12,726 nt of DNA. Source: a virus. Taxonomy: Duplodnaviria; Heunggongvirae; Uroviricota; Caudoviricetes. The notes under the pieces were generated by a model. That model did not search any database. It was not told the origin of the DNA and saw only the letters and a list, made by a program, of their open reading frames with translations. Location of the stretch: IMG/VR virus record IMGVR_UViG_2585427728_000005; one strand, given 5' to 3'. A program made the position numbers and the translations under genes. Shown piece after piece: positions 1 through 12,726 of the stretch (the first letter of the stretch is position 1; each line of letters opens with the position of its first letter).

Positions 1-53
1 GGTATCCGTTCTGCTGAAGTGTCATGGCGTTGATTTTACGGTGACTCTTCGAC

Positions 54-83
54 AGTGAAAAGAAAAAAGGCCGCAGAGCGGCC
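54..83 (-). terminator. Rho-independent terminator downstream of the 209..646 gene
   Basis: Perfect GC stem GGCCGC (69-74) / GCGGCC (78-83) with a 3-nt loop; on the minus strand the hairpin is followed by a T-run (plus-strand A-run 63-68). No T-run follows it on the plus strand. Confidence 0.5.
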
Positions 84-208
84 ATAAACACAAGTAAAAA
101 TCAACAAGTTAGATAATTATCAAAGACTTACAGACACACAAAAACACAGCCAACCACAACAAATAACAGGGATGTGGTCACTTTGTGGATCATATCGCCG
201 CCATAAAT

Positions 209-646
209 TTACTTAATAACAGTAACCACAGCCACAAGCACGGCCATCGCAGACAGGACAATACCTGTGAGTAACCAAGTCTGATTTGCAAATGATTTCT
301 GAAGTTCAGTACGATGCTCAGCCATCTCAACTTTCAGAGACTGGCGTAAATCAGCCATCTCAGACTTCAGGGATTGGCGCGATTCTGCCATCTCAAGCCT
401 CAACCCTTCGCGAATCTCCAGTACATCAGATTTGGTAGCAAAGGATTCGCTTCTTGTGGTGAGAGTAATCAGGTTGTTTTTGATTTCAGTCACATCACTT
501 TCCAGGCAACTGACCCGCCGTTCAAGGTCGTCATTCATGCCATCACCTCCATCATTACCACTTCCTGTTACTTGGTTGTTGGATACATTATAGGCATTCT
601 CTTTCTTTTTTCTGAACCGCGAAATATGTGCAACATTCTCTGCCAT
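209..646 (-). CDS. Hypothetical protein with an 11-residue-repeat coiled coil and a C-terminal transmembrane helix; sits where a tail-fibre assembly/chaperone gene would be expected, but is not recognisable as one
   Basis: Open frame of 146 codons from a GTG at 649; the first ATG is at 646. Three 11-aa repeats (EMAESRQSLKS / EMADLRQSLKV / EMAEHRTELQK) and a hydrophobic C-terminus (WLLTGIVLSAMAVLVAVVTVIK). Lies directly downstream of the tail-fibre cassette on the same strand and is followed by the terminator at 54..83. Confidence 0.55.
   Translation of the reverse strand: MAENVAHISRFRKKKENAYNVSNNQVTGSGNDGGDGMNDDLERRVSCLESDVTEIKNNLITLTTRSESFATKSDVLEIREGLRLEMAESRQSLKSEMADLRQSLKVEMAEHRTELQKSFANQTWLLTGIVLSAMAVLVAVVTVIK
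318..416. repeat. Three imperfect 33-bp tandem repeats inside CDS 209..646, encoding the 11-residue coiled-coil repeats
   Basis: Copies begin with tcagccatctc at 318 and 351 and with tctgccatctc at 384; the period is exactly 33 bp. Confidence 0.7.
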
Positions 647-677
647 CACTTCTCATCACCCTGCTTGCCTACCCAGT

Positions 678-1100
678 TCATAAAGGCCCGGGCCGAGTAA
701 CGATGAACAAACCCACATCTGTTACAGGTAAGTCGGAATTCATAGTTATGGATATTTTCCCGATCATGTCCCTCATATCCCGGATATCCCAATTCCATCC
801 AACGGATGTATCACCATTAACAGTATTACCTGTTTGTCGGAGTGCAAATGCATTGACATTTTTGGCACTAATTGAAATATCGCTAGAACCATCAAAACCA
901 ACTCCAGCAATTTTTCGTGCTGTTTTCAGCTTTGTTGCAGTAGCGGCATTGCCGGACAGCTCCCCAGAAAGGCCACCGCTGAATGTTTGTCGATTGGTCC
1001 AGGTATTCGCTGTACTGAGTAACGGTATTTTCTCCCCGCTTGTGCCGAGTTCTCGTAAACCGAGGTTTTGGATAATGGCCGTTTCCGGCCTGCATGGCAT
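678..1100 (-). CDS. Tail-fibre protein C-terminal (variable) cassette with no N-terminal constant domain of its own; probably the invertase-proximal alternative cassette of an invertible segment
   Basis: Contains the conserved tail-fibre motif ATATKLKTARKIAGVGFDGSSDISI that I recall from P2 H, Mu S and P1 S type fibres. The frame is open upstream only to a stop at 1125-1127, so no constant part is encoded on the invertase side. The gix-like site at 1050..1075 lies inside its 5' end. Confidence 0.6.
   Translation of the reverse strand: MPCRPETAIIQNLGLRELGTSGEKIPLLSTANTWTNRQTFSGGLSGELSGNAATATKLKTARKIAGVGFDGSSDISISAKNVNAFALRQTGNTVNGDTSVGWNWDIRDMRDMIGKISITMNSDLPVTDVGLFIVTRPGPL
1050..1075. other. 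gix/hix-like recombination (crossover) site for the adjacent serine invertase
   Basis: TTCTCGTAAACC-GA-GGTTTTGGATAA: two 12-bp imperfect inverted half-sites (9/12 symmetric) around a central GA dinucleotide, about 55 bp upstream of the invertase start. It differs at only two positions from the Mu gix sequence as I recall it (TTCCTGTAAACCGAGGTTTTGGATAA). Confidence 0.65.
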
Positions 1101-1129
1101 GATTTGCGCTTTTGGACGGGAGATTCAGC

Positions 1130-1729
1130 GTGCTGATTGGCTATGTAAGGGTATCAACAAATGACCAGAATACAGACTTGCAACGAAACGCTCTTGTTTG
1201 TGCAGGATGCGAACAAATATTTGAAGATAAATTAAGCGGGACAAAGACAGACCGACCGGGATTAAAACGCGCTTTAAAGCGCCTTCAAAAAGGTGACACG
1301 CTGGTTGTCTGGAAACTGGATCGCCTCGGGCGAAGCATGAAACATCTGATTTCTCTCGTCGGGGAACTACGGGAGCGAGGGATTAATTTTCGCAGTCTGA
1401 CCGACAGCATAGATACATCTTCTCCAATGGGGCGTTTTTTCTTCCACGTGATGGGTGCCCTGGCTGAAATGGAACGTGAATTAATTGTTGAACGTACACT
1501 GGCCGGACTGGCGGCAGCGCGCGCACGGGGGCGCACAGGCGGACGTCGACCGAAGCTGACAAAAGAACAGCATGAGCAAATAGCAAGGCTAATCAAAAAC
1601 GGGCACGACAGAAAACAACTGGCAATAATTTACGGCATTGGCACATCGACGATTTATCGTTATCACCCTGTAGGCGATATACAGACTGAAGAAACAACCG
1701 GGCAGACTCAGGAAAATGAAAACCGCTAA
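1130..1729 (+). CDS. Serine recombinase DNA invertase of the Gin/Pin/Cin/Hin family
   Basis: From the GTG at 1130 the product is 199 aa and begins VLIGYVRVSTNDQNTDLQRNAL, the hallmark N-terminus of Gin/Pin with the catalytic Ser in YVRVST; it also has the GDTLVVWKLDRLGRS and MGRFFFHVMGALAEMERELI blocks and a C-terminal HTH region. A GGGAGA Shine-Dalgarno lies 6 nt upstream of the GTG. The ORF track begins at a TTG at 1112, which is probably not the real start. Confidence 0.9.
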   Translation: MLIGYVRVSTNDQNTDLQRNALVCAGCEQIFEDKLSGTKTDRPGLKRALKRLQKGDTLVVWKLDRLGRSMKHLISLVGELRERGINFRSLTDSIDTSSPMGRFFFHVMGALAEMERELIVERTLAGLAAARARGRTGGRRPKLTKEQHEQIARLIKNGHDRKQLAIIYGIGTSTIYRYHPVGDIQTEETTGQTQENENR

Positions 1730-1749
1730 TCTGACCATTAGCGGTTTTT
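1719..1749. terminator. Bidirectional intrinsic terminator between the convergent invertase and gpU genes
   Basis: Perfect 12-bp inverted repeat aaaaccgctaat (1719-1730) / attagcggtttt (1737-1748) with a 6-nt loop, and A/T runs on both sides giving a U-tract in either direction. The invertase stop codon lies in the left arm. Confidence 0.5.
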
Positions 1750-1757
1750 GTGTAAAA

Positions 1758-2252
1758 TCAGAACAGCCCTTTAACTGAACTGGCCGCGCTGTTAAGAGAT
1801 GATGTCACCTTATCTTTGAAGCCGGACAGCATATCACTGAACGATGAGGATTGCAGGCGCTCCCGCAAATCCTCATCACAGCGTTCAAGGGTCAGTGAAA
1901 ATTCTATCTTTTTCGCCTTACCGTAGCGATCAAACTCGGAACGGGTCGTATTCGTTTCAGTCAGCACATACATGCCGTAAATCTGCCCGACGCCATCAAT
2001 CAGAGGCCAGGGTCGTCCTGTATACGCCTGCGTGGTCAGCAGCGACAGCGATACTTCGCCACCTGTAATTTCAGGATAAAGCACACCAGAAAGAACGATG
2101 CGATCATCTCCTGCACCGATATACTGCCAGCTTGCTGAACGGTTAACGCGTTCATTTTTCACATGCCGCCAGCTTTTGTTTTGCTGTAACTGCTGATGCG
2201 GCAGCGTGCGCAGCTCAAAAACAAACATGCCGTAGATCATCATCATGGCCAT
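1758..2252 (-). CDS. U: P2-type tail protein gpU
   Basis: About 160 aa, immediately downstream of the tape measure gene on the same strand, matching P2 gene order T-U. The N-terminus (MMMIYGMFVFELRTLPHQQLQ) fits my recollection of the gpU family. A GAGGAG Shine-Dalgarno lies upstream; the true start may be the second or third Met. Confidence 0.75.
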   Translation of the reverse strand: MAMMMIYGMFVFELRTLPHQQLQQNKSWRHVKNERVNRSASWQYIGAGDDRIVLSGVLYPEITGGEVSLSLLTTQAYTGRPWPLIDGVGQIYGMYVLTETNTTRSEFDRYGKAKKIEFSLTLERCDEDLRERLQSSSFSDMLSGFKDKVTSSLNSAASSVKGLF

Positions 2253-2258
2253 GACTCC

Positions 2259-5075
2259 TCAATCTTTATCGTAAAAACTGCCACGCCCGGCACGGGCGCG
2301 CCGTTCCATTTCTGCCCTGACCATTTCACCTACCAGTTTCGCAAGTTCGCGGGGATTCTGCGTAACAACGTTATGCAGATGAACATGAATTTCACCGCCA
2401 AATCCGGAGGCAACCGGCTCCCGATTACGGGAAGCTGCAGGAACTGATGCCACTGGCGATCGTATGGCCTCCGCCACCGGGCGGGAGCTGGCCGCAACAA
2501 CAGGGACCAGCGCCGGAGGCAGCGGAGCCGGGACCACGGGTGTGATATTAATTGCGGGGGCAGGCTTACTGACCTGCGCAATCTTCCGCTCCTGCCACTC
2601 CCCACGAACGGCAAGTGCGCGGGGCAGGTTCTTAAAGACAATATCGCCGGGGCCAATGCGTTTTTTCGTCTCATCAACCAGCTTACCTGTGTTATCAGCA
2701 ATTTTGCTGAGTCTGCGCAGCGTACCGGTATTGCTGTCTGTGAGCGGTTTATTGTCTTTGGGGTTATCACCTCCGGTACCATTGCCATTTTCCACAGGCT
2801 TCGGCGGATTGATTTTCGCCAGGTCCCCCTGAAGCAAGGCAACCTTGTCCTGAAGAATGGCCGCACGCTGTGCGTCTTCGATTTTCTTGCGCGCCCTTTC
2901 CGCTTCATCCGGAAGGACGCCAAGTTTTTCAAGTATCCACGCCAGCGTATCCAGCAGCATTTTTGCAGGTGTCAGAACAAGCTGTAACGCACCGCCAAGA
3001 ACGTTACCGAATATCTCGCCAGCACTGGTACATTTATCCAGCGTTTCCTTGCTGGACTCCATCGGTGACAGCAGCGATTTAAACCAGTTAAACACCTGGC
3101 TGATCCCGCTCCCGATTGCGTCAAAAACAGGACCAAACCGTTCAAAAGTTTCGCGCAACGGGGTCAGCCTTTCCATAATCCCGCTGAACACCCCGGCAAA
3201 AAATGCCCTGATGGGATCCCAGTATTTCCAGATAAGAACGGCAGCTCCGGCAAGCGCAGCCACGATAAGACCAACCGGACTGAACAACGCCCCGATAGCG
3301 CCTCCCAGCAAAGAAACGGACCCCGTCACCATTCCCCATAGTGCTGGCAGGACCCTGACAGCATTCATTGATCCGGTCAGGAGAGAAAAACCAAGACGCA
3401 GTTTTGCCAGCGGACCAGCAAGCACACCAATAGCCAGCGACAACGAGCCAACCGTTGCAGTCATTGCCAGCAACGCACCGCCTGCTATCAGTAGCTGGCG
3501 CGTCAGTGCCGGATGGGCCTGCGCCAGCGCCGTCACCCTTGATACCACCCGCGTGAGCCACTGCGTGACAGAACGCAGCGGACCGTCAATCAGATCTGCA
3601 ATGCGGATGCGCAACCCTTCCCATGCACTGCCGAGTGATTTCAGATCGCCGTCAAGGTTGTTGGCCATAACCTTTGCTGTGCGTTCAGCCTCACCGCGCG
3701 CGCCTTCAAGTTCTTTTCTCAGTTTGGGTAAGGAACCGTCACCCGCTGCATCAACGAGCGCCATAAACGATGTGAAAGCCTCTTCTCCGGCAATGTCCTT
3801 AAAGAACGATACCCGGTCAACTTCCCCGTATTTGCGGGTGGCTTTATAAAGGTCGGCCAGCACATCCTCCATCGGGCGCATTTTGCCCCCGGCATCCGAG
3901 ACGGACACGCCCAGCTCTTTCAGAGCTTCTGCCCCCGCCTTTGGCGGTGATGCCAGACGAGCCAGGCTGGCACGCATTGCCGTCCCGGCATCACTCCCTC
4001 TGATGCCCATATTCGCCAGCACGCCAGCCATCGCTGCGGCCTGCTCCAGCGATATTCCCAGCTTCCCCGCCACCGGACCTGCATATTTCATGGTTTCGCC
4101 CAGTGCGCGAAGGTCAGTGTTGGTACGGGTAAACGCTGCGGTGAGTGTGTCACCGACCCGGTCCATCTGGTCAGCAGAAAGGCCGAACTGCGTCAGGATA
4201 TTTGAGCCAATATCTGCCGTCTCGCCGAGATCCATACCGCCAGCCGTTGCCATGCTCAGCACGCCGGGAAGCGCAGCCTGAATGGCCTGCGGAGTGAAGC
4301 CAGCCATTGCAAGAAATGCCTGTCCACTGGCGGCATCGCCTGCGGTGAACTGCGTTTCAGAGCCAAGTTTTAACGCCTGCTCACGCAGCGCTTTAAACTG
4401 CGGGCTGTTCTGGTCGATTCGCGTCAGTGCCTGAACGCGGGACATCTCTTTGCCGAACCCGATCGCAGGCTGCAAAAAACGCCCGGCAGCATAGCCGCCC
4501 GCCGCTGCCGCACCAATTGCCAGCGCACCACCTGTTTTCAGTTTTCCCGCTGTTTCCTGCGCGCGCGAATACCGCTCACGCGCCCGCGTTACACGCGCAA
4601 GCGCCTGCCGTTCGCGTTCAAGCTGGTTGTTGTACTGTTCGGTGCGTCTGATGGCCTGCTGGATGGTGTTATCGCTGCCTGTCAGGGAAATGCCGTGGCG
4701 TTTCAGCTCTCCGCCAAGTTCCCGCATTTTCTGAATTTCCCGTGTGCGCGATTCATTCAGGCGTTCAAGCCGGGTGCTTAACTGCCGCATCAGCTTTTGT
4801 TGTTTTTCGCTGAGCACTGTACCCGTGCGTTGTAACTGATTAAGGGCGTTAAGCTGGCGTCGTGCTTTCAATATGCCAGCATCCGCTTTACTGACAGCGT
4901 CACGGGCGCGCTCAAATGAACGCGCCTGACGCTCGAGATTTTTGATCGCCCCCTGCGTTCGCTGGATGGAGTCACCAAGCTGCCCCATCAGGCGGCGGGC
5001 GTTTTCGGCAGGCCGGGTCAACCTGTCAACGGCGCTGAAAGCGACCCGGATATCAAGAGTCTTCATTATCTGCAT
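2259..5075 (-). CDS. T: Tail tape measure protein (gpT-like)
   Basis: 938-aa ORF with a long coiled-coil N-terminal region and Gly/Ala-rich hydrophobic segments typical of tape measure proteins. It lies between the chaperone gene E/E' and U. The start may be the internal Met at 5066. Confidence 0.85.
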   Translation of the reverse strand: MQIMKTLDIRVAFSAVDRLTRPAENARRLMGQLGDSIQRTQGAIKNLERQARSFERARDAVSKADAGILKARRQLNALNQLQRTGTVLSEKQQKLMRQLSTRLERLNESRTREIQKMRELGGELKRHGISLTGSDNTIQQAIRRTEQYNNQLERERQALARVTRARERYSRAQETAGKLKTGGALAIGAAAAGGYAAGRFLQPAIGFGKEMSRVQALTRIDQNSPQFKALREQALKLGSETQFTAGDAASGQAFLAMAGFTPQAIQAALPGVLSMATAGGMDLGETADIGSNILTQFGLSADQMDRVGDTLTAAFTRTNTDLRALGETMKYAGPVAGKLGISLEQAAAMAGVLANMGIRGSDAGTAMRASLARLASPPKAGAEALKELGVSVSDAGGKMRPMEDVLADLYKATRKYGEVDRVSFFKDIAGEEAFTSFMALVDAAGDGSLPKLRKELEGARGEAERTAKVMANNLDGDLKSLGSAWEGLRIRIADLIDGPLRSVTQWLTRVVSRVTALAQAHPALTRQLLIAGGALLAMTATVGSLSLAIGVLAGPLAKLRLGFSLLTGSMNAVRVLPALWGMVTGSVSLLGGAIGALFSPVGLIVAALAGAAVLIWKYWDPIRAFFAGVFSGIMERLTPLRETFERFGPVFDAIGSGISQVFNWFKSLLSPMESSKETLDKCTSAGEIFGNVLGGALQLVLTPAKMLLDTLAWILEKLGVLPDEAERARKKIEDAQRAAILQDKVALLQGDLAKINPPKPVENGNGTGGDNPKDNKPLTDSNTGTLRRLSKIADNTGKLVDETKKRIGPGDIVFKNLPRALAVRGEWQERKIAQVSKPAPAINITPVVPAPLPPALVPVVAASSRPVAEAIRSPVASVPAASRNREPVASGFGGEIHVHLHNVVTQNPRELAKLVGEMVRAEMERRARAGRGSFYDKD

Positions 5076-5289
5076 TCCCGCTGCGAAGTGCCGCCCGCTC
5101 GCGCCAGCTAACCACTTCGCCGGGCGTCATCATGAAGATTTCGGCGGGCGACCAGTTAAAAATGGCGGCAATATCCGCCACCAGATCTTCGATGTGCTCA
5201 AAGCACACCAGGGTGATTACGCTGCCGTCTCCTGCACGCTCTTCGCGCCAGAGTCTGGCTCGCTCATAAAATTTACAGCCACAGCGCAC
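5053..5289 (-). CDS. gpE' extension: the -1 frame part of the tail assembly chaperone fusion E+E', reached by programmed frameshift from gpE
   Basis: A -1 frame relative to gpE is open from 5319 to a stop at 5053 and overlaps both the 3' end of gpE and the 5' end of gpT, the conserved arrangement of tail chaperone frameshift genes. The slippery heptamer is at 5268..5274. Confidence 0.6.
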   Translation of the reverse strand: MRCGCKFYERARLWREERAGDGSVITLVCFEHIEDLVADIAAIFNWSPAEIFMMTPGEVVSWRERAALRSGNADNEDS

Positions 5290-5591
5290 AACTGAATAAA
5301 ATCGCGTGACGACATTTTTTTAATCATCACTTCATCCAGTCGTGGCGAGGTCACGCGAGGCAACAGCGTGAACATGGTATCCGCTTTCAGATTCAGCACA
5401 TCAGACAGCGACAGACCACGCAGGGATCCAGCCTGCTCAATAGCCCCGGTGATCTCCACATACGTGATTTTTTCGCCACCACGCTCAATTGGTCGGGTCA
5501 GTTTTACGCCACGTTCGACAGCCATATCCTCACCTGCCGTCACATCATCCGCCACGGTGTTATTCCGGGTTTCAGTATCGATGTCTTTCAT
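5217..5591 (-). CDS. E: Tail assembly chaperone gpE (0-frame product)
   Basis: 124-aa ORF between the tube gene and the tape measure gene, with an AAGGAG Shine-Dalgarno 7 nt upstream of the ATG at 5591. Position and the overlapping -1 frame match the P2 E/E' arrangement. Confidence 0.7.
   Translation of the reverse strand: MKDIDTETRNNTVADDVTAGEDMAVERGVKLTRPIERGGEKITYVEITGAIEQAGSLRGLSLSDVLNLKADTMFTLLPRVTSPRLDEVMIKKMSSRDFIQLCAVAVNFMSEPDSGAKSVQETAA
5268..5274 (-). other. Candidate -1 programmed ribosomal frameshift slippery heptamer A_AAT_TTT in gpE
   Basis: In the gpE frame the minus strand reads GTA AAT TTT ATG (V N F M). The heptamer A-AAT-TTT fits the X_XXY_YYZ pattern, and a -1 slip gives AAA TTT TAT (K F Y), which is exactly the sequence of the overlapping frame. 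Confidence 0.4.
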
Positions 5592-5646
5592 CAGTTGTCT
5601 CCTTTTCAGTCAGAGGCGACGCACTGCGCCGCCTGCATATTATTTA

Positions 5647-6159
5647 TCAGCCAAGCCCAAGCGCGGAACGGATACGGTCAGGCACAATGTCCTTGCCGTC
5701 CTTCCGGTAGATGTGGTTCAACAGGTCGATTTCCCACAGCGGGCGATCGTTAACGCTCAGCTTGTAGTAGGTGTTTTTGACAGCGTAAGTGTGTGATGTG
5801 GCTTCACCCTGTTTGGCTTCCCCCATATCAATTTCCGTCACACGCCCGCGCATCTCGATTTCATACAGATCACTTTCTGCATCGGTGTAGTATTCACCCG
5901 CAAAACGCAGCAGCGTGCCGTCAATCGTGCCGCCATATTTAAGGAACAGCTCACGAACTGCGCCCCCCATGACAAAGCTCGCATCAAGCGCGGAGTCGTC
6001 CAGACCGAGATCAATACTTACCGCCCCCATCATGCCACCACCCCGGTAGCTGTCGGTTTTGCGCGTCAGCTTAGGCAGAGTGACGGACGTCACCTTACCC
6101 ACTTCGTTTTCACCATCCACAAACAGCGTAAAAAAGCGAAGATGTTTTGGCACAGCCAT
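5647..6159 (-). CDS. FII: Tail tube protein (gpFII-like)
   Basis: 170 aa, immediately downstream of the sheath gene; the sheath stop and tube start overlap as TGATG at 6157-6161. Size and position match the P2 FI-FII pair. Confidence 0.85.
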   Translation of the reverse strand: MAVPKHLRFFTLFVDGENEVGKVTSVTLPKLTRKTDSYRGGGMMGAVSIDLGLDDSALDASFVMGGAVRELFLKYGGTIDGTLLRFAGEYYTDAESDLYEIEMRGRVTEIDMGEAKQGEATSHTYAVKNTYYKLSVNDRPLWEIDLLNHIYRKDGKDIVPDRIRSALGLG

Positions 6160-7343
6160 CAGGCACCTCCCAGCACCGCAAATGCGGGTTCAAAGTATTC
6201 ATCAGTAAACGTCTGGTAAAGCTCCATGTCTTCCAGTGGCGGAACGGGCGTATATTTGTAGCGAATGCGCACACGCCCCTGACGTAAATCCGTGGTGCTG
6301 TTATCCACCACGTCATACCAGCACTCCGCACCAATCAGTTTCCCGGCAGTAACCAGTGAATCCAGTTTTGCCCTGATGGCACTGATAACATCCTTCACGT
6401 TCGCAGGCGTCAGTGGACTGTCGATGGTTTCAAACTGCGCTTCCGCAATTGAATCAGCCAGCACCTGTGCGGTTCGGGTATACACCTCAAAGATGTAGGC
6501 GTTCGTTTCCGGTGTGCGGTTGCCCCAGAAGCGGAACCCGTTGCGACGAATAATGGTCGTGATTTCTTTGTTGTTGAGGCTGTTGGCATCACTGTCTTCG
6601 GCCTGCAACGACCAGAACACATGCCTGGACATCCCCAGCACATTTTTAACCGGAACGTTGGACAGCGATTTGTGCCAGCCCTGCTCATGGTCAATGTACG
6701 CACGAAGGCCGCACGCATAAGCAGGCGCGGGGAACGTTTCGTTTTCGCCACTTTTCGGGTTGTAGGCGATGAAGTCCGGCCATAAGAGCATCACTTCACG
6801 TTCGTTGAATTTCTGGCGGTAGGTAATCGCTTCAGCCATCGTGTTACAGCCGTGACATGAGGCATACACAAACGCACGCAGTTTACCCGCAATCACGCAC
6901 AGGGATTTTGTCACCGCCTCCGTGTCCAGCTCCGGCGCGGCCAGAATACGCGGACGGTATCCGATGCTTTCATCCTGCTCTGCAACAAGCAGCGCATACA
7001 TCCCCGTATAGCTGCCGTCATCCTCAGAACCACCGATAACCAGTTGATCCTGCGTCTTTTCGTCTTCTTCTTTGTGTTCAGCCACGCGAACGACGATCAC
7101 CTTTGTGCTCACCTGGTCTGCGATGGCCTTAAGCGCACGATAAAGCGTCCCCGTTGTCCCGCATTTTCCCAGCACGTCATTGACGCGGGTCAGCAGTGTG
7201 GGCTTGTTCAGCGGGAACAGCTTCGCGTCCGCATCATCCGCCGTTGCCACGATACCGATAACACTGGAATCAACATCATTAATCGCTGTTACCAGGTCGG
7301 TATTTTCCGTAACACGGGCACCATGAAAACGAGTTTCACTCAT
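6159..7343 (-). CDS. FI: Contractile tail sheath protein (gpFI-like)
   Basis: 394 aa (P2 FI is about 396 aa), first gene of the FI-FII-E-T-U block, with an AAGGGG Shine-Dalgarno upstream of the ATG at 7343. Confidence 0.9.
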   Translation of the reverse strand: MSETRFHGARVTENTDLVTAINDVDSSVIGIVATADDADAKLFPLNKPTLLTRVNDVLGKCGTTGTLYRALKAIADQVSTKVIVVRVAEHKEEDEKTQDQLVIGGSEDDGSYTGMYALLVAEQDESIGYRPRILAAPELDTEAVTKSLCVIAGKLRAFVYASCHGCNTMAEAITYRQKFNEREVMLLWPDFIAYNPKSGENETFPAPAYACGLRAYIDHEQGWHKSLSNVPVKNVLGMSRHVFWSLQAEDSDANSLNNKEITTIIRRNGFRFWGNRTPETNAYIFEVYTRTAQVLADSIAEAQFETIDSPLTPANVKDVISAIRAKLDSLVTAGKLIGAECWYDVVDNSTTDLRQGRVRIRYKYTPVPPLEDMELYQTFTDEYFEPAFAVLGGA

Positions 7344-7500
7344 AGCTTCAGCCCCTTGTATCCGTTAAATGATTCGGCAACAATCATCACCCACCACGCG
7401 CGTAATCTCACCCCTGCGCCGTTCTCCCGACCCGGCGACAACAAAAAGCAGTAACCCCCTCCGCACGCACATGCGACCATGCCACACAGGGAGGGAACAG

Positions 7501-8610
7501 ATGACCGATACCACCATGCAATTGCTCAGTCAGGGCACAGACCCCGTGAAAATGCCGGATTTTGATATTCTCGCGGAGGGTAAAACGCTGTCAGGCGTGG
7601 CAGAGCGCCTGATGACCCTGTCACTGACCGACAACCGGGGATTTGAGGCGGACCAGCTCACCATCACGCTGGATGATGCGGATGGTCAGTTGCAGCTACC
7701 GCAACGGGGCGCGCGCCTGACGGTTCTCATTGGCTGGAAAGGCGAACCGCTGACAGAAAAAGGCACTTACATTGTTGATGAAATCGCACACGAAGGACCG
7801 CCGGACAGGCTGACTGTTTCAGCCAGAAGCGCAGATTTTCGGGATGAATTTAACGTTAAACGTGAGGTGTCCTGGCATGATGTGACCGTTGAGCGTGTGG
7901 TATCCGCCATCGCTCATCGGTATGGTCTGAAACCGCAAATCAGCGAAATGCTGATGGATATCGAAATCGACCACGCCGACCAGACCGAAGAAAGCGACAT
8001 GTCCTTCCTTACGCGCATGGCGGAAATGCTGGGCGCAATCACCACGGTAAAAAGCGGTAATCTGTTATTCATCATGCCCGGTGGTGGCGTGAACGCACAG
8101 GGCCAGCCGTTGCCCTCGTTCGCCATCACGCGCAGCAGTGGCGATCGCCATCAGTTCCGCATTGCTGACCGCGAAGCGTATACGGGTGTACGCGCCTACT
8201 GGCTTGATCTTAATTACGGGAAAAAGAAAAAAGTCAGCGTGAAACGCCGCAAACCGCCAAAACCCAAAAAGGAGAAAAGCAGCAGCCGTGAAGGTGATTA
8301 TATGGAAGGCGCGGAAGGAAATGTGTTTGTGTTACGCAAGACTTATCAGAACGAGCAGGCAGCAAGACGCGCAGCGGCGGCAAAGTGGCAGCAGCTACAA
8401 CGCGGAGCCGCATCATTCTCCATCACACTGGCTCGTGGACGCGCAGAACTCTACCCCGAAATGCATGGCACGGTAACAGGATTTAAAAGCGAGATTGATA
8501 ATCAGGACTGGATTATTGCGAAAGCCGATCACACCATTGATAACAGTGGCTTTACCACGCAGCTTGAGCTTGAGGCAAAAATCCCGGAATGGATAGCGGA
8601 AACAGAGTGA
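7501..8610 (+). CDS. D: P2 gpD-like tail protein (late control D family)
   Basis: 369 aa from the ATG at 7501, which has a strong GGGAGGG Shine-Dalgarno 5 nt upstream; the ORF-track start at 7369 is probably too far upstream. Size and sequence character fit the gpD family, and it lies upstream of ogr as in P2. Confidence 0.8.
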   Translation: MTDTTMQLLSQGTDPVKMPDFDILAEGKTLSGVAERLMTLSLTDNRGFEADQLTITLDDADGQLQLPQRGARLTVLIGWKGEPLTEKGTYIVDEIAHEGPPDRLTVSARSADFRDEFNVKREVSWHDVTVERVVSAIAHRYGLKPQISEMLMDIEIDHADQTEESDMSFLTRMAEMLGAITTVKSGNLLFIMPGGGVNAQGQPLPSFAITRSSGDRHQFRIADREAYTGVRAYWLDLNYGKKKKVSVKRRKPPKPKKEKSSSREGDYMEGAEGNVFVLRKTYQNEQAARRAAAAKWQQLQRGAASFSITLARGRAELYPEMHGTVTGFKSEIDNQDWIIAKADHTIDNSGFTTQLELEAKIPEWIAETE

Positions 8611-8657
8611 GCAACTGGGATGCATTAGTTCAGACACGGGCTAGCATGCTTACGTAC

Positions 8658-8700
8658 GGCACAGAAGCAAACCTAATTGGAGTTTTGCTCTGTGCCTTTC
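8658..8700 (+). terminator. Possible terminator hairpin downstream of gpD
   Basis: Imperfect 14-bp inverted repeat ggcacagaagcaaa (8658-8671) / ttttgctctgtgcc (8683-8696) with one bulge, followed by only a short TTTC tract. Confidence 0.3.
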
Positions 8701-8820
8701 ACCGATTGGCCAAGTGTAACCCGCCTTACACCAAGACGAATTATAATTGGCAACAATGTCAGTAGTTACTATAAATGTTTATAAACAAAGATTTATTTCT
8801 CCGAAGCTACAAGCACTACA

Positions 8821-11613
8821 CTAAATCTCAGCAATCTTTTTTTTACTGTGCTGTTCTATTATCAACTCTGCTTCCGCTTGGTATTCATGAGCTAACTCTC
8901 GAAGAATTCGGGCAAATCGATGAAAGCCTAGAAGTTCCATTGCATCAGACTTAGTGTGATATTGTTGGGCTAACTCCAATTCCGGTTTACCTTCTGGGTC
9001 AACAATGTAGACACCACGCGAATTTATTATCGCATTCTTATAACCAGTACGCACTTTATCAAGTTCACGTCTATTCAAAAACTCGGCCAGTTCTGGAAGT
9101 ATCCAATGCTCGTCATTTGCAGGGCTAAAAATTAATATGCTTCCAATCCTATGATAAGCAAAATCTAAATGGCCTGACTTTTCGCATTCTGTTTGGACAA
9201 AATCAAACCAGTTATTAAACGCCTTGACATCAAACTTGCCTTCAGCATCAACACCCGGAATCTTTTTCCAATCATCAAGTAAATAGAGTGAGTTTTTGGC
9301 AATATTTATTTCACTTTCAGATAGTTCTTTACTTGCTTTTTGAAATTCTGATCGATACGCATATTGAATGACTTCACAAAAAAAACTGGGTTCACTTGCA
9401 AGTTTTTTCTCTAATACTTGAGGATGCAACGAATCATTAGCCCCCCTGTTAATTACAGGTAGGTATGCCCATTCAATCTTTACTAAGTCGTCATCTGAAA
9501 CAGTGTTATCATTTTGAATATAATTCACAAGTTCATTAAATGAGTGAATATCAAACCGCTCAATATTTTCTGTGGTTCTAATTGATTGCAATAGAGCAAG
9601 CACAACCTTACTGCTATCAACTGAATTATCGATATGCAAAATTTTAGATAAACAATCTATTGCCATCAAGGGACGGTCTACTTTAATCAAGCAGTCTATA
9701 GCAAAATAAATTTCTTCCGTTGAATCACAGCTGTATGCATTAACAAGAGTATTTTTCCAATACTCGAAAGGAAAATCATCAAATGAAGCGTTTAATGCAT
9801 CCCATGTTTCTTTTTTAAACGGTAACAAAAGAAAAAAAGCAATCTTTTCTTGAGCACTCCAGTCATTAATAACTGTCAACACCCATGATTTTCCTTCTCT
9901 GTAGTTTTTAGCCTGTACATAACCAGAAGCAAGAGAATTTTCCTTTTTAATATCACTAACAATAAGTTTTTTCAGTATATCTAAAGGAATTTCTAGATCT
10001 TCTGCGACCAGGCTACTACCAACAAACTCAGGCCTTTCAATAGATAGAGAGAATTCTAAGACTCCATCAATACCATTAATAGCATATATTTCGCATATTG
10101 ATTGCCCTCGTTCTTTTGTCAACCTTTCTTCTTGGTCCCGCCAGTTTCCATTTTCATCAAATAGGAAGTAATTGTTTTGTGCAAAAAGTCGCTTGCTATA
10201 AAGCATAGGATCTTCGGGCTTCAAGACTGTAGAAACATCTTTGATTTTTTCATTTTGTTCTGGTTGCATTGCCCAATAAGCACCTGAGAATCTTTTGTTT
10301 TTGTTATAAACTTCTAAACATTTTTCCCACACCGCTAACTTCAATTCAGCACTATCTGTTTTTTTAGAAAAATCATACAATAGTTTAATTGCATCATCGA
10401 ATTTAAATGGCGCTAAACTACCAATATTTTCAACTAAATCAACAAGTCTTAATGATGATTTACTTGCCAATTCAATTGTTAATTGAGTGTATATTTCAAT
10501 CTGAGTACGGCACTCATCACCCGATGGCCTTTTATTAAAACCGTTAGGAATAAAGTTTCTAAAAGTTGGAATATGTGTGCCAGATGTTACTTGCGTGTTG
10601 TTGGGTAGCAACTGAACTAAAACACGCCATGCTGTATCGGGCCACTCCCTTGCCAATGCGTTGAAAGCAGCAATACGTCTATCTATATCAGCTGTAGTAT
10701 GAGGAAGCCATGGTAACAATATGTTGATTATCGAGTTAAGTGGCCTGTTAGCCCAATTGCCACCAGGATCATGGCTATCCAGCTCCCCTAATATTACTAA
10801 AGAGCGAGATAAATAGTTAGGCGCCCAAGCTAATCCTTCAATAGCCCATAGCAGTCCTGTCATATAATTCCGACCTGAAATTCCACCGATACCTTCCTGT
10901 GCAAAAAGTGAATCAAATGGCTTGTCTTGGTGAGATGCAGCATTTTCCACTTCGTCGATAAAACAGTCAGGAGCACTTTCCGCAAGCATAACTTGAATAT
11001 CTTGCGTACTAGCCCATAATTGCCAGCTAGAAGCCGAAAAAACCTCTTTAACCACACTTGAGGCGCAATATTGCCCTTTATATTTTGAGCAATTAGTAAG
11101 TAACTCTTGCTTTGTTGCAACTAATGCCAACCCTTCGGATAGTCCTTTCCTTATTAATCGGCTGTGTGGTAAAACCTTCCCATAAATTACTGCTGCATAA
11201 CGCTCTTCAGGTGCCAGTTCAAATTGTGGGTCGATAGTTTTAAAAACGGATACAACAGTCGTCCGAAACAAATCCAAATGATCATCGAATAATCTTGACG
11301 ATACCGTTTGAAATGTTTGTATTCTATCTTTAAAACTCCAAGAACCTCTCTCATGAATCAAAGGACTATCTTGCATCCCTTCAATTATTCTTAATTTTCG
11401 AATCCAACTGTCATATGACTCGCTAATAAGGCTTGTAATTATATCAATATCACCATTATTTTTTTCATCCCAGCAACCGACTAAAACAGCAATCGCTAAC
11501 TCAGTCGCATAATCAACATTATCACTATTGTATACAATTAAGTTACCAGCAACATTATGGCCTGTTCCGGTATGATTTTGACTAATTGAACTGCAGCTAT
11601 GAATGTTATCCAT
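8821..11613 (-). CDS. Large (~930 aa) protein of unknown function; second gene of the AT-rich cargo operon between D and ogr
   Basis: Uninterrupted 2.8-kb ORF in AT-rich DNA, where long open frames are unlikely by chance. ATG at 11613 with a GAGG Shine-Dalgarno 8 nt upstream; the ORF track starts at a GTG at 11619 that overlaps the upstream stop. I see no Walker A, HExxH, HNH or RT motif and cannot assign a family. Confidence 0.85.
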   Translation of the reverse strand: MDNIHSCSSISQNHTGTGHNVAGNLIVYNSDNVDYATELAIAVLVGCWDEKNNGDIDIITSLISESYDSWIRKLRIIEGMQDSPLIHERGSWSFKDRIQTFQTVSSRLFDDHLDLFRTTVVSVFKTIDPQFELAPEERYAAVIYGKVLPHSRLIRKGLSEGLALVATKQELLTNCSKYKGQYCASSVVKEVFSASSWQLWASTQDIQVMLAESAPDCFIDEVENAASHQDKPFDSLFAQEGIGGISGRNYMTGLLWAIEGLAWAPNYLSRSLVILGELDSHDPGGNWANRPLNSIINILLPWLPHTTADIDRRIAAFNALAREWPDTAWRVLVQLLPNNTQVTSGTHIPTFRNFIPNGFNKRPSGDECRTQIEIYTQLTIELASKSSLRLVDLVENIGSLAPFKFDDAIKLLYDFSKKTDSAELKLAVWEKCLEVYNKNKRFSGAYWAMQPEQNEKIKDVSTVLKPEDPMLYSKRLFAQNNYFLFDENGNWRDQEERLTKERGQSICEIYAINGIDGVLEFSLSIERPEFVGSSLVAEDLEIPLDILKKLIVSDIKKENSLASGYVQAKNYREGKSWVLTVINDWSAQEKIAFFLLLPFKKETWDALNASFDDFPFEYWKNTLVNAYSCDSTEEIYFAIDCLIKVDRPLMAIDCLSKILHIDNSVDSSKVVLALLQSIRTTENIERFDIHSFNELVNYIQNDNTVSDDDLVKIEWAYLPVINRGANDSLHPQVLEKKLASEPSFFCEVIQYAYRSEFQKASKELSESEINIAKNSLYLLDDWKKIPGVDAEGKFDVKAFNNWFDFVQTECEKSGHLDFAYHRIGSILIFSPANDEHWILPELAEFLNRRELDKVRTGYKNAIINSRGVYIVDPEGKPELELAQQYHTKSDAMELLGFHRFARILRELAHEYQAEAELIIEQHSKKKIAEI

Positions 11614-11618
11614 AGACA

Positions 11619-11939
11619 CTACCTCGTAATTTTATTTCCACCAATATTATCACCAGTGCCACTATGGTTTTGAATAATGACAGTTGCTGCATGAGGTTTT
11701 ATAGACGAGAGTATTTTTTGAATTTCACTACTATCCAATAGTTTTCTTTCAATTGCTATTTCACTCATTTCATCGTTCAAAGACAGTTTTTCAAGCTCTT
11801 TAGCTAAAGCAGGGGCTACAGCCTCATCAACAACCCAATTTTTTAACTTTTCTTTTATTGAAGTTGCAGTAATCGAAACATGATGTTTAAGCATGTCATA
11901 AACTATGCCAGAAAGTATCGTCGAAGATAAAAAATCCAT
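11619..11939 (-). CDS. Small (106 aa) predicted helical protein of unknown function; first gene of the cargo operon
   Basis: ATG at 11939 with an AAGGGA Shine-Dalgarno 8 nt upstream. Its TAG stop (11619-11621) lies 6 nt from the ATG of the large gene, suggesting translational coupling. The C-terminus carries the motif QNHSGTGDNIGGN, which is also present at the N-terminus of the large protein. Confidence 0.75.
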   Translation of the reverse strand: MDFLSSTILSGIVYDMLKHHVSITATSIKEKLKNWVVDEAVAPALAKELEKLSLNDEMSEIAIERKLLDSSEIQKILSSIKPHAATVIIQNHSGTGDNIGGNKITR

Positions 11940-12075
11940 AACAATTTTCCCTTAACGTAAGATATTTACTATCAAGATACATTTTAAATCGAAGAAAGAG
12001 CTTTTACCACGTATATTTATTGGCTAATAACATGATAATTCGACTGTCTGCTATTCGCTTAAAACGAAGAGTTTG

Positions 12076-12104
12076 TTGGAATTATAGCCAGCACGACCTA
12101 GAAT
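12076..12104 (+). promoter_or_regulatory. Candidate sigma70-type promoter for ogr
   Basis: TTGGAA (12076-12081), a 17-bp spacer, then TAGAAT (12099-12104), about 30 bp upstream of the ogr ATG. The region is AT-rich, so this could be a chance match. Confidence 0.25.
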
Positions 12105-12134
12105 AACATCAGCACTGCGTTAAGGGAGGTCGCT

Positions 12135-12395
12135 ATGTTCCGTTGCCCGCTTTGTGGCGCATCTGCCCGCATCCGTACCAGTCGTCCGGAAAATGATTCA
12201 AATACCGTGCGGCAAAAGTATTACCAGTGTAACAACTTGGAATGCGGCGTCTGCTTCTCAACACTGGAAGCTTTCCATAAGTTCACATCAAAACACGCCT
12301 CAAGTGTTCACTCTTCAGAGGGTATCCCGTGGCATGCTCTGCCTGCTTCACACAGGGGAAACAGTCAGATGAGTTTGCCCTTACCTCAGGATTAA
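12135..12395 (+). CDS. ogr: Ogr/Delta-family zinc-finger late gene transcription activator
   Basis: N-terminus MFRCPLCGASARIRTSR...YYQCNNLECGVCF carries the C-x2-C...C-x4-C zinc finger and aligns with P2 Ogr as I recall it (MFHCPLCQHAAHARTSR...YHQCQNVNCSATF). A GGGAGG Shine-Dalgarno lies 5 nt upstream of the ATG. It lies downstream of D as in P2. Confidence 0.85.
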   Translation: MFRCPLCGASARIRTSRPENDSNTVRQKYYQCNNLECGVCFSTLEAFHKFTSKHASSVHSSEGIPWHALPASHRGNSQMSLPLPQD

Positions 12396-12455
12396 CAAGC
12401 AGAATTGCCGGAGTAACAAAAAAGCGATAGATTACGCGCGGGTGCCTTTCGGCTG

Positions 12456-12719
12456 ATGGTCGGAGGGAATACCCGAAGGCCAGATGTGGAAAGGCCCCGG
12501 AAAACATTTCTGTTTAACCGAGGCCCTAACCGCATTACCTTGACAAGTGAAAGGTTAGCGCCTCTCCGGAAAAGGAGCAAGTGCTATGTCGCAAAAATCG
12601 CTTACGGCCATCACGTTCTGCGTGACGGCAATCCTCATCATCTGGATGCTGCACGGTTCGCTGTGCGAAATACGGATGAGCTTCTGGGGAGCGGAGTTTG
12701 CGGCGTTCTTACAGTGTAA
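12456..12719 (+). CDS. mok-like overlapping leader ORF of the hok locus
   Basis: An 87-codon frame that begins upstream of the hok-like gene and overlaps almost all of it in a different frame, as mok does in hok/mok/sok loci. Assigned by position only. Confidence 0.3.
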   Translation: MVGGNTRRPDVERPRKTFLFNRGPNRITLTSERLAPLRKRSKCYVAKIAYGHHVLRDGNPHHLDAARFAVRNTDELLGSGVCGVLTV

Positions 12720-12726
12720 GCAGTAA
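12586..12726 (+). CDS. hok: Hok/Gef-family type I toxin (small membrane peptide)
   Basis: 46-codon ORF, too short for the ORF track: MSQKSLTAITFCVTAILIIWMLHGSLCEIRMSFWGAEFAAFLQCKQ, ending in TAA at the last base of the window. It has an N-terminal TM helix, the conserved SLCE(I/L) block and an E-x-AAFL-x-CK tail that resemble HokA as I recall it. An AGGAG Shine-Dalgarno lies 8 nt upstream. Confidence 0.75.
   Translation: MSQKSLTAITFCVTAILIIWMLHGSLCEIRMSFWGAEFAAFLQCKQ

Follow-up and report, generated by a model that had tools for sequence, protein, structure and literature searches.

Coiled coils interrupted by β-layers are recognised by the consensus [aliphatic]-A-T-K-[polar]-[DE], which Hartmann et al. 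found in DUF3782 proteins and which is prominent in the integral membrane proteins of DUF1640, at the point where their C-terminal stalk begins (eLife 2016, PMC4786415). All crystal structures with this consensus in that study are parallel trimers, and β-layer coiled coils also occur in phage fibres (PMC4786415). Here, we analyzed a 12,726-nucleotide stretch of Caudoviricetes DNA (IMG/VR record IMGVR_UViG_2585427728_000005, hereafter the window), in which a gene near one end encodes a 145-amino-acid (aa) protein with such a motif, a repetitive coiled coil and a C-terminal membrane anchor. An earlier note, made from the sequence of the window, had placed this gene where fibre-assembly proteins of the Mu U or P2 G type are normally found. 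We found instead that it is the terminal gene of the lysogeny operon of a P2-like prophage and that it travels with a small zinc-ribbon gene as a mobile cassette. We read its product as a headless, DUF1640-like, trimeric tail-anchored stalk that would be expressed in the lysogen and would most probably serve phage exclusion or defence, and we give this joint reading a probability of roughly 0.55.

The coiled-coil gene is genuine (coordinates of all features are collected in Table 1). The listed open reading frame (ORF) spans 209..649 on the minus strand and begins with GTG; the next codon is an ATG at 646 that overlaps the stop codon of the upstream ORF (TGATG), and translation from this ATG gives the 145-aa product. 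RefSeq annotates an identical 438-nt coding sequence (CDS) and 145-aa product in intact prophages. Across Pfam, PHROG and NCBIfam, the protein had a sole strong match, PHROG 9415 (E 1.3e-42), whose function is not annotated. An intrinsic terminator hairpin lies on the same strand, about 125 nt past the stop codon.

To the left of the deletion described below, the window is prophage DNA with a short flank of ordinary chromosome. Positions 1..791 match one end of a P2-like prophage with 99.6-99.9% identity, and this end is present in 86 of the 5426 complete E. coli genomes. It is the att/integrase end, and the prophage is inserted between btuC and ihfA. Positions 1-83 matched at 100% in essentially all sampled E. 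coli genomes, with the match ending at 83 where the prophage is absent; in strain SE11, btuC ends directly left of the window. The order in E. coli SE11 and 19AR1724 is btuC, att, the coiled-coil gene, a 120-aa ORF, the integrase gene and a helix-turn-helix (HTH) repressor gene. All four genes are co-oriented and closely packed, with gaps of 49 nt between repressor and integrase, 2 nt between integrase and the 120-aa ORF, and -1 nt between the 120-aa ORF and the coiled-coil gene. The native site of the coiled-coil gene is therefore after the integrase gene at att, about 24 kb from the tail-fibre genes, and not the fibre-chaperone position.

The neighbourhood seen in the window is the product of a large loss. 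In 19AR1724, about 24 kb of the same prophage separate this end from the counterpart of window positions 785..12726. The alignment showed that at 785-791 the 3′ part of the 120-aa ORF switches into the middle of a partial alternative tail-fibre segment, which matches (785..1064, minus strand) a 19AR1724 feature annotated as 'phage tail protein, incomplete, missing N-terminus' beside the invertase gene. The DNA missing from the window comprises the integrase, repressor, replication, portal, terminase, capsid, lysis, baseplate and tail-fibre genes, together with two 'tail fiber assembly protein' genes. Thus, the coiled-coil gene lies near fibre DNA because about 24 kb of prophage is missing, and the adjacency is an accident of this deletion, or possibly of assembly; the fibre chaperones were not replaced but lost with the deleted DNA. 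None of the 5426 complete E. coli genomes contains the junction at 785-791, and among the fetched loci it occurs only in L011 (IMG/VR UViG_3300029458_000135), the same contig as the window. Either a real deletion or an error of metagenome assembly could have produced it. An invertase-mediated origin was rejected, as the junction lies about 260 nt from the crossover site at 1050-1075. The remnant of the 120-aa ORF ends in a TGA (648..646) that overlaps the ATG of the coiled-coil gene. Because this ORF is truncated to about 48 codons and the promoter region of the operon is deleted, the window copy of the cassette is broken and probably non-functional, or at best poorly expressed.

These data bear directly on the idea that the protein is tail-fibre-associated, replacing a Mu U or P2 G-type assembly chaperone and possibly present in the virion or on the fibre. 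In the window, the gene does lie about 140 nt downstream of the truncated tail-fibre segment on the same strand, and the β-layer coiled coils of phage fibres (PMC4786415) would offer a structural precedent. However, the adjacency was made by a deletion unique to the window contig, the gene adjoins fibre genes in 0 of 13 other contexts, and intact prophages keep two normal fibre-assembly genes; in 19AR1724, both stand beside the fibre gene. The coiled-coil gene is also co-oriented and coupled with repressor and integrase rather than with the late genes, and no tail-fibre-assembly (Tfa-type) family appeared among its Pfam, PHROG, NCBIfam and PADLOC matches. We regard a fibre role as hardly credible. 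The earlier note was thus right that the protein is no recognisable fibre chaperone, and its sequence features, the membrane-anchored hendecad coil and the repeat variability all stand; its interpretation as an unusual fibre chaperone falls to synteny and the lack of homology. The main result is in this sense corrective: the supposed odd chaperone belongs to the accessory genes at the opposite end of the prophage.

We then compared the two-gene unit across phages. A partner gene encoding a CxxC...CxxC protein overlaps the start of the coiled-coil gene in all 13 cassettes inspected (13 of 14 contexts). The partner proteins are 117-172 aa long and share the CxxC...CxxC arrangement, in which the four cysteines are invariant in the partner family, and a VTPELFAEFL-like motif; searches with the partner gave weak zinc-ribbon matches. 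In P2-like prophages of E. coli, Yersinia and further assemblies, the pair follows the integrase gene at the att end. The second location is between CI and int in 186-like prophages, with a Flk_N-type tail-anchored protein; Citrobacter prophages carry the pair at one or other of these two sites. In Pectobacterium, an island surrounded by late genes carries the pair on the opposite strand. The fourth location is the arc/ant accessory island of the cultured Salmonella siphophage SPN3UB (gp24/gp25; 5001-5670 of locus L043), between the major tail protein and the tape measure, as well as in related Salmonella prophages. The pair behaves as a mobile moron cassette that inhabits the accessory regions of several types of temperate phage in enterobacteria.

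Several further observations concern the distribution of the cassette. It is also present in the cultured temperate siphophages S107, S135, S137 and 29485, and its genes are called hypothetical wherever they are annotated. A tblastn search of cultured phages with the coiled-coil protein returned no match, probably owing to low-complexity filtering, whereas the partner protein did match cultured phages; partner genes were also matched in Klebsiella and Enterobacter phages. The cultured siphophages carrying the cassette provide an experimental system. In the 186-like relatives (L003, 5002-5631; L029, 2486-3532; L030, 2119-3204), the Flk_N-type tail-anchored membrane protein is about 210 aa long and encoded between CI and the cassette, and its N-terminus repeats a motif of the CI repressor C-terminus (SG..NR.AGRD[FY].EN). 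A contig scan with a single narrow peptide pattern returned two Erwinia loci only. At 2429-2899 of L044 (Erwinia phyllosphaerae), the relative has a FATHAD motif and four LRGELKxDIxS hendecads and adjoins a methionine aminopeptidase gene, where neither a zinc-ribbon partner nor an integrase was recognisable; this chromosomal copy is possibly an orphan or domesticated.

The tight coupling to int and C in most P2-like contexts could point to a regulator of the prophage's own life cycle, acting on integration or excision, immunity or induction, and the zinc-ribbon partner, judged by its weak matches, could bind nucleic acid. However, the cassette is also found away from int and the repressor, in the Pectobacterium late-gene island and the SPN3UB ant island, and most P2-like prophages lack it, the copy studied here being confined to the 86 E. 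coli genomes mentioned above. Because of this distribution it is not a core life-cycle function, and we consider a regulatory role of this kind unlikely.

We utilized AlphaFold2 to predict the structure of the 145-aa protein as a single chain, with a 75-sequence family alignment. The protein reads MAENVAHISRFRKKKENAYNVSNNQVTGSGNDGGDG-MNDDLERRVSCLESDVTEIKNNLITLTTRSES-FATKSD-VLEIREGLRL-EMAESRQSLKS-EMADLRQSLKV-EMAEHRTELQK-SFANQT-WLLTGIVLSAMAVLVAVVTVIK. In the model, residues 1-36 are disordered, with a predicted local distance difference test (pLDDT) value of about 53, and are followed by a helix at 37-68, a break at F69-A70-T71 and a second helix at 72-144, with pLDDT >90 from residue 40 onward. 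Residues 1-36 vary among relatives, yet their frame is always open and a loose hydrophobic-x-F-P/R-basic motif is present. Residues 37-68 form the most conserved block of the family. The hexapeptide FATKSD fits the β-layer consensus with Phe replacing the aliphatic residue, its K72 and D74 are invariant in the close alignment, and the helix break falls on its first three residues. The protein has no signal peptide and ends in a transmembrane helix of 21 hydrophobic residues (124-144), modelled with pLDDT >90 and followed by one Lys. Sequence and model therefore confirm what the earlier note had described, namely 11-residue repeats in a coiled coil that is anchored to the membrane at its C-terminus. 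A Foldseek search with the model was uninformative, as expected of a single long helix.

We next searched 1.84 billion representative proteins with a family profile and obtained 851 clusters at E <1e-3, of which 74 were at E <1e-10. Nearly all clusters are 100-200 aa long, and their most hydrophobic 19-mer lies 0-6 residues from the C-terminus. Among 145 family representatives, 101 contain the motif [FLIVMY][AS][TS]K.[DE]. Pfam PF07798 (CCDC90-like, formerly DUF1640) was matched by 20 of 75 relatives at E <1e-3, with a best E of 3.7e-8, and the family profile matched the trimeric β-layer structures 7o92 (1.2e-7), 6h9l (5.3e-6) and 5apz (1.5e-5). A globular N-terminal head is the defining feature of the DUF1640/CCDC90-like family. 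Judged by these profile matches, the protein is a headless, divergent relative of DUF1640-like membrane coiled coils; we call it a relative rather than a certified member because its own PF07798 score is under threshold and the globular head is absent. As all solved β-layer constructs are trimers, the motif suggests that the coiled-coil protein is a parallel trimer.

The absence of a signal peptide and the single residue after the transmembrane helix suggest a C-tail-anchored inner-membrane protein with its stalk in the cytoplasm. This layout recalls XhlA, in which a coiled coil precedes a C-terminal transmembrane helix, and might indicate a lysis accessory protein, whether XhlA-like, holin-associated or spanin-like. 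One relative matches Pfam XhlA at 8.9e-5, and PHROG gave weak matches to a 'hemolysin' family and, at E 0.035, to an Rz-like spanin. However, the gene is never found in a lysis cassette, and the intact prophage encodes a holin, an endolysin, a DUF2570 protein and LysC elsewhere. The gene belongs to the lysogeny operon rather than the late operon, and its C-terminal transmembrane helix predicts a cytoplasmic coil. Rz-like i-spanins, by contrast, are anchored at the N-terminus, have their coil in the periplasm and are encoded in the lysis cassette with an o-spanin; the weak PHROG match is the only similarity of the window protein to them. A lysis function is in our judgement improbable.

The stalk itself is built of repeats. 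Tandem Repeats Finder detected a 33-bp period at 318..396 (2.4 copies, 81% matches, score 98); the three tandem repeats noted earlier at 318..416 are the same array in another phase, the protein-phase array being 394..296 with units at 394..362, 361..329 and 328..296. Units 1 and 2 share 24 of 33 nucleotides and the remaining pairs 15-16 of 33, so only units 1 and 2 are clearly alike. The hydrophobic-moment spectrum of the stalk peaks at 2.75-2.8 residues (about 11/4), which fits an 11-residue period and gives no clean 11/3 signal; we did not rely on it. The proposal that the repeats allow length variation was borne out by a copy-number comparison, in which near-identical close relatives differed by whole 11-residue units. 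One unit is present in P0035 (Salmonella, 123 aa) and P0038; two in P0009 (Shigella flexneri, 134 aa), P0039 and P0041; three in the window protein and most E. coli copies; and four in P0014 (Shigella dysenteriae) and P0033 (156 aa). More distant family members have other hendecad arrays, from no unit at all up to five or six. These alignments support stalk length as the feature that varies among relatives, through gain or loss of 33-bp units. Such in-frame variation is a natural experiment on the length of a coiled-coil stalk.

The 5′ part of the gene may hold a second start. Met37 is invariant in the close alignment, and its ATG lies 7 nt from a GGAGG resembling a Shine-Dalgarno (SD) sequence. 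A Gly-run followed by Met (GGxGGGxM) occurs in 62 of 145 family representatives, an SD-like G-run precedes the Met37 equivalent in all 13 cassettes, and many database entries begin at this residue, for example P0015 (109 aa, at least 1000 contigs). Met37 is thus a possible second start for a 109-aa form, which would give two isoforms. The 36-codon extension upstream is probably translated too, because its frame is always open, is coupled to the partner stop codon and carries the loose motif. A sigma-70-like promoter match (TTCAGA-18-TATAAT, 10/12) lies at 587-616 on the minus strand, inside this extension, and could drive a short-form transcript; with two such matches found against 1.8 expected by chance, a single match is not above chance.

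What might the cassette do? The stretch between int and att in P2-like phages has been reported as a minor defence hotspot, with 3% of the P2 systems located there (PMC13586616). We favour exclusion or defence because the cassette combines this hotspot with a position in the lysogeny operon and with movement among the accessory islands of unrelated phages. P2 transcribes C and int together. By the same arrangement, the coiled-coil gene, translationally coupled to its partner of about 120 aa, would be expressed with it in the lysogen as the end of the repressor-integrase operon. Through its C-terminal tail anchor, the protein would sit on the inner membrane with the entire stalk on the cytoplasmic side, and the trimeric stalk would hold the N-terminal peptide, the zinc-ribbon partner or both at a fixed distance from the membrane. 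Stalk length would change as 33-bp units are gained or lost. The most probable purpose would be to exclude, or defend against, other phages.

The main rival is a lysogenic-conversion or host-physiology factor, that is, a tail-anchored membrane scaffold that recruits a host complex and alters host fitness. Eukaryotic members of the related DUF1640/CCDC90-like family (MCUR1/CCDC90B, mitochondria) are described as membrane scaffolds, expression of the operon is expected in the lysogen, and the operon of 186-like relatives also carries the Flk_N-type tail-anchored protein. Tail-anchored E. coli proteins of the ElaB/YqjD type offer an analogy for such a role, not a homology. However, there is no evidence of any host target, and confinement to phage accessory islands, with movement between unrelated phages, is more typical of phage-versus-phage functions. 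We consider a host-directed role possible but doubtful.

Several results weigh against exclusion or defence by a DUF1640-like trimeric stalk. The window protein scored 10.9 bits (E 0.42) against PF07798, under the cut-off of 33.5, and its AlphaFold2 model shows no globular N-terminal head domain. The trimeric state is deduced from a motif and the topology from the lack of a signal peptide, and the structure was predicted for a single chain. The partner matched no Pfam family and, by sequence, no PDB entry; Foldseek likewise gave no match in PDB (best E 0.94), so that its fold yielded no informative comparison, and an Erwinia relative apparently lacks the partner. PADLOC (2023; PADLOC-DB 2.0) gave no significant match for either cassette protein, only chance-level hits to LmuB (E 0.0075, over the coiled-coil stretch) and Cas12a (E 0.03). 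Literature searches, including searches with RefSeq accessions and for tail-anchored prophage proteins, found nothing on either protein. No annotation gives a function, and the hotspot location is guilt by association, since morons there also encode non-defence traits.

Even so, exclusion or defence remains the reading that we prefer, and the cassette is a reasonable candidate for a phage-exclusion or lysogenic-conversion function. Tentatively, and with considerable doubt, the pair might be a previously unrecognised two-gene anti-phage system, acting by superinfection exclusion or abortive infection and mobile among the P2-like, 186-like and lambdoid phages of Enterobacterales. In such a system, stalk length (1-4 or more hendecads), and perhaps the M1 and M37 isoforms, would tune activity at the inner membrane. 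These results define a conserved, uncharacterised two-gene cassette of a zinc-ribbon protein and a headless DUF1640-like tail-anchored coiled coil. No role is known for DUF1640 proteins of bacteria and phages, to which the cassette offers a small, genetically tractable entry point in E. coli.

Table 1 Features of the window around the coiled-coil gene, by position
Feature	Position	Strand	Basis
Chromosomal DNA between btuC and ihfA, as far as the prophage boundary (attL side)	1..83	.	genome matches
Intrinsic terminator hairpin (GGCCGCTCTGCGGCC then TTTTTTCTTT), at the chromosome/prophage boundary	69..83	-	terminator scan
CDS of the 145-aa C-tail-anchored coiled-coil protein (predicted topology), last gene of the prophage lysogeny operon	209..646	-	stop codon 211..209
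C-terminal transmembrane helix WLLTGIVLSAMAVLVAVVTVI-K, residues 124-145 (predicted tail anchor)	212..277	-	sequence, AlphaFold2
Three 33-bp units EMAESRQSLKS, EMADLRQSLKV, EMAEHRTELQK (hendecad stalk, EMAxxRxxLxx)	296..394	-	Tandem Repeats Finder, unit identities
FATKSD, residues 69-74, β-layer motif of trimeric α/β coiled coils	425..442	-	consensus match, AlphaFold2 break
Heptad coiled-coil segment, residues 37-68 (MNDDLERRVSCLESDVTEIKNNLITLTTRSES)	443..538	-	AlphaFold2 helix
Invariant Met37 (538..536), possible second start, preceded by GGAGGTGATGGC; SD-like GGAGG at 550..546	536..550	-	sequence, alignment
N-terminal extension, residues 1-36: disordered, basic, fast-evolving, Gly-rich run (GSGNDGGDG) at its end	539..646	-	AlphaFold2, alignment
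Remainder of the 120-aa zinc-ribbon partner gene: its 3′ end, the last ~48 codons with the second CxxC	646..791	-	alignment with 19AR1724
Deletion junction, at most ~7 nt common to both sides, ~24 kb removed	785..791	.	alignment with 19AR1724
Truncated alternative (invertible) tail-fibre C-terminal segment	785..1064	-	match to 19AR1724 feature
Putative invertase crossover site TTCTCGTAAACCGAGGTTTTGGATAA, just upstream of the invertase gene	1050..1075	.	read from sequence
Serine invertase (Pin/Gin/Cin type)	1112..1729	+	Pfam Resolvase 1.5e-50, HTH_7 4.4e-13

The remainder of the window holds other prophage genes. The crossover sequence presumably belongs with the gix/cix/hix-type sites, which it resembles, and together with the invertase and the truncated fibre segment (785..1064, minus strand) it is what is left of an invertible switch of host range. 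Next, at 1758..7343 on the minus strand, come the tail genes U, T, E, FII and FI; gpD lies at 7369..8610 on the plus strand. Relative to the classical P2 tail-gene order, the FI-U block is inverted; it directly abuts the invertase, and in 19AR1724 it is likewise opposite to V-W-J-I-H. The gpD protein is full length in the window (413 aa), whereas the 19AR1724 annotation gives it as truncated. Between gpD and ogr, the minus strand at 8821-11939 encodes a 106-aa HetE-N-domain protein (RefSeq 'GapS6a family') and a 932-aa protein with no Pfam or PADLOC match; the pair looks like a two-gene defence-type insertion at a further accessory site. On the plus strand, the window closes with genes for a zinc-finger late activator resembling ogr/Delta (12135..12395) and for a toxin of the Hok/Gef family (12586..12726), and the contig stops exactly at the end of hok.

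Finally, we compared the coiled-coil protein and its cassette with described systems. With the tail-fibre assembly chaperones P2 G, Mu U and lambda Tfa, the sole likeness is accidental proximity to fibre DNA in the window contig; the protein has no sequence similarity to them, and its architecture and native locus differ. XhlA of the Bacillus PBSX-type lysis cassettes (PF10779) is likewise a small phage protein with a coiled coil and then a C-terminal transmembrane helix, but the window protein did not match PF10779 (Pfam, E up to 10), 1 of 75 relatives did so weakly, and the context is a lysogeny operon, not a lysis cassette. Accessory genes of the P2 int-att interval share their location with the cassette, but it matches no known defence family. 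The α/β coiled coils of the Tcar0761/DUF3782 type (PDB 5apz, 7o92) also have an ATK-type β-layer within a heptad coiled coil, and their solved structures are parallel trimers; they differ in being soluble or endonuclease-fused with nonad repeats, whereas the window protein has a single β-layer, hendecads and a membrane anchor. The DUF1640/CCDC90-like proteins (PF07798; MCUR1, CCDC90B and prokaryotic homologues) share a [hydrophobic]-A-T-K-x-[DE] β-layer that opens the stalk, a single C-terminal transmembrane helix and small size. Membership in this family would give no mechanism, as its bacterial members have no assigned role. Unlike them, the window protein has a disordered peptide and a heptad coil instead of the head, together with tandem hendecads of variable number and a gene coupled to that of a zinc-ribbon partner.

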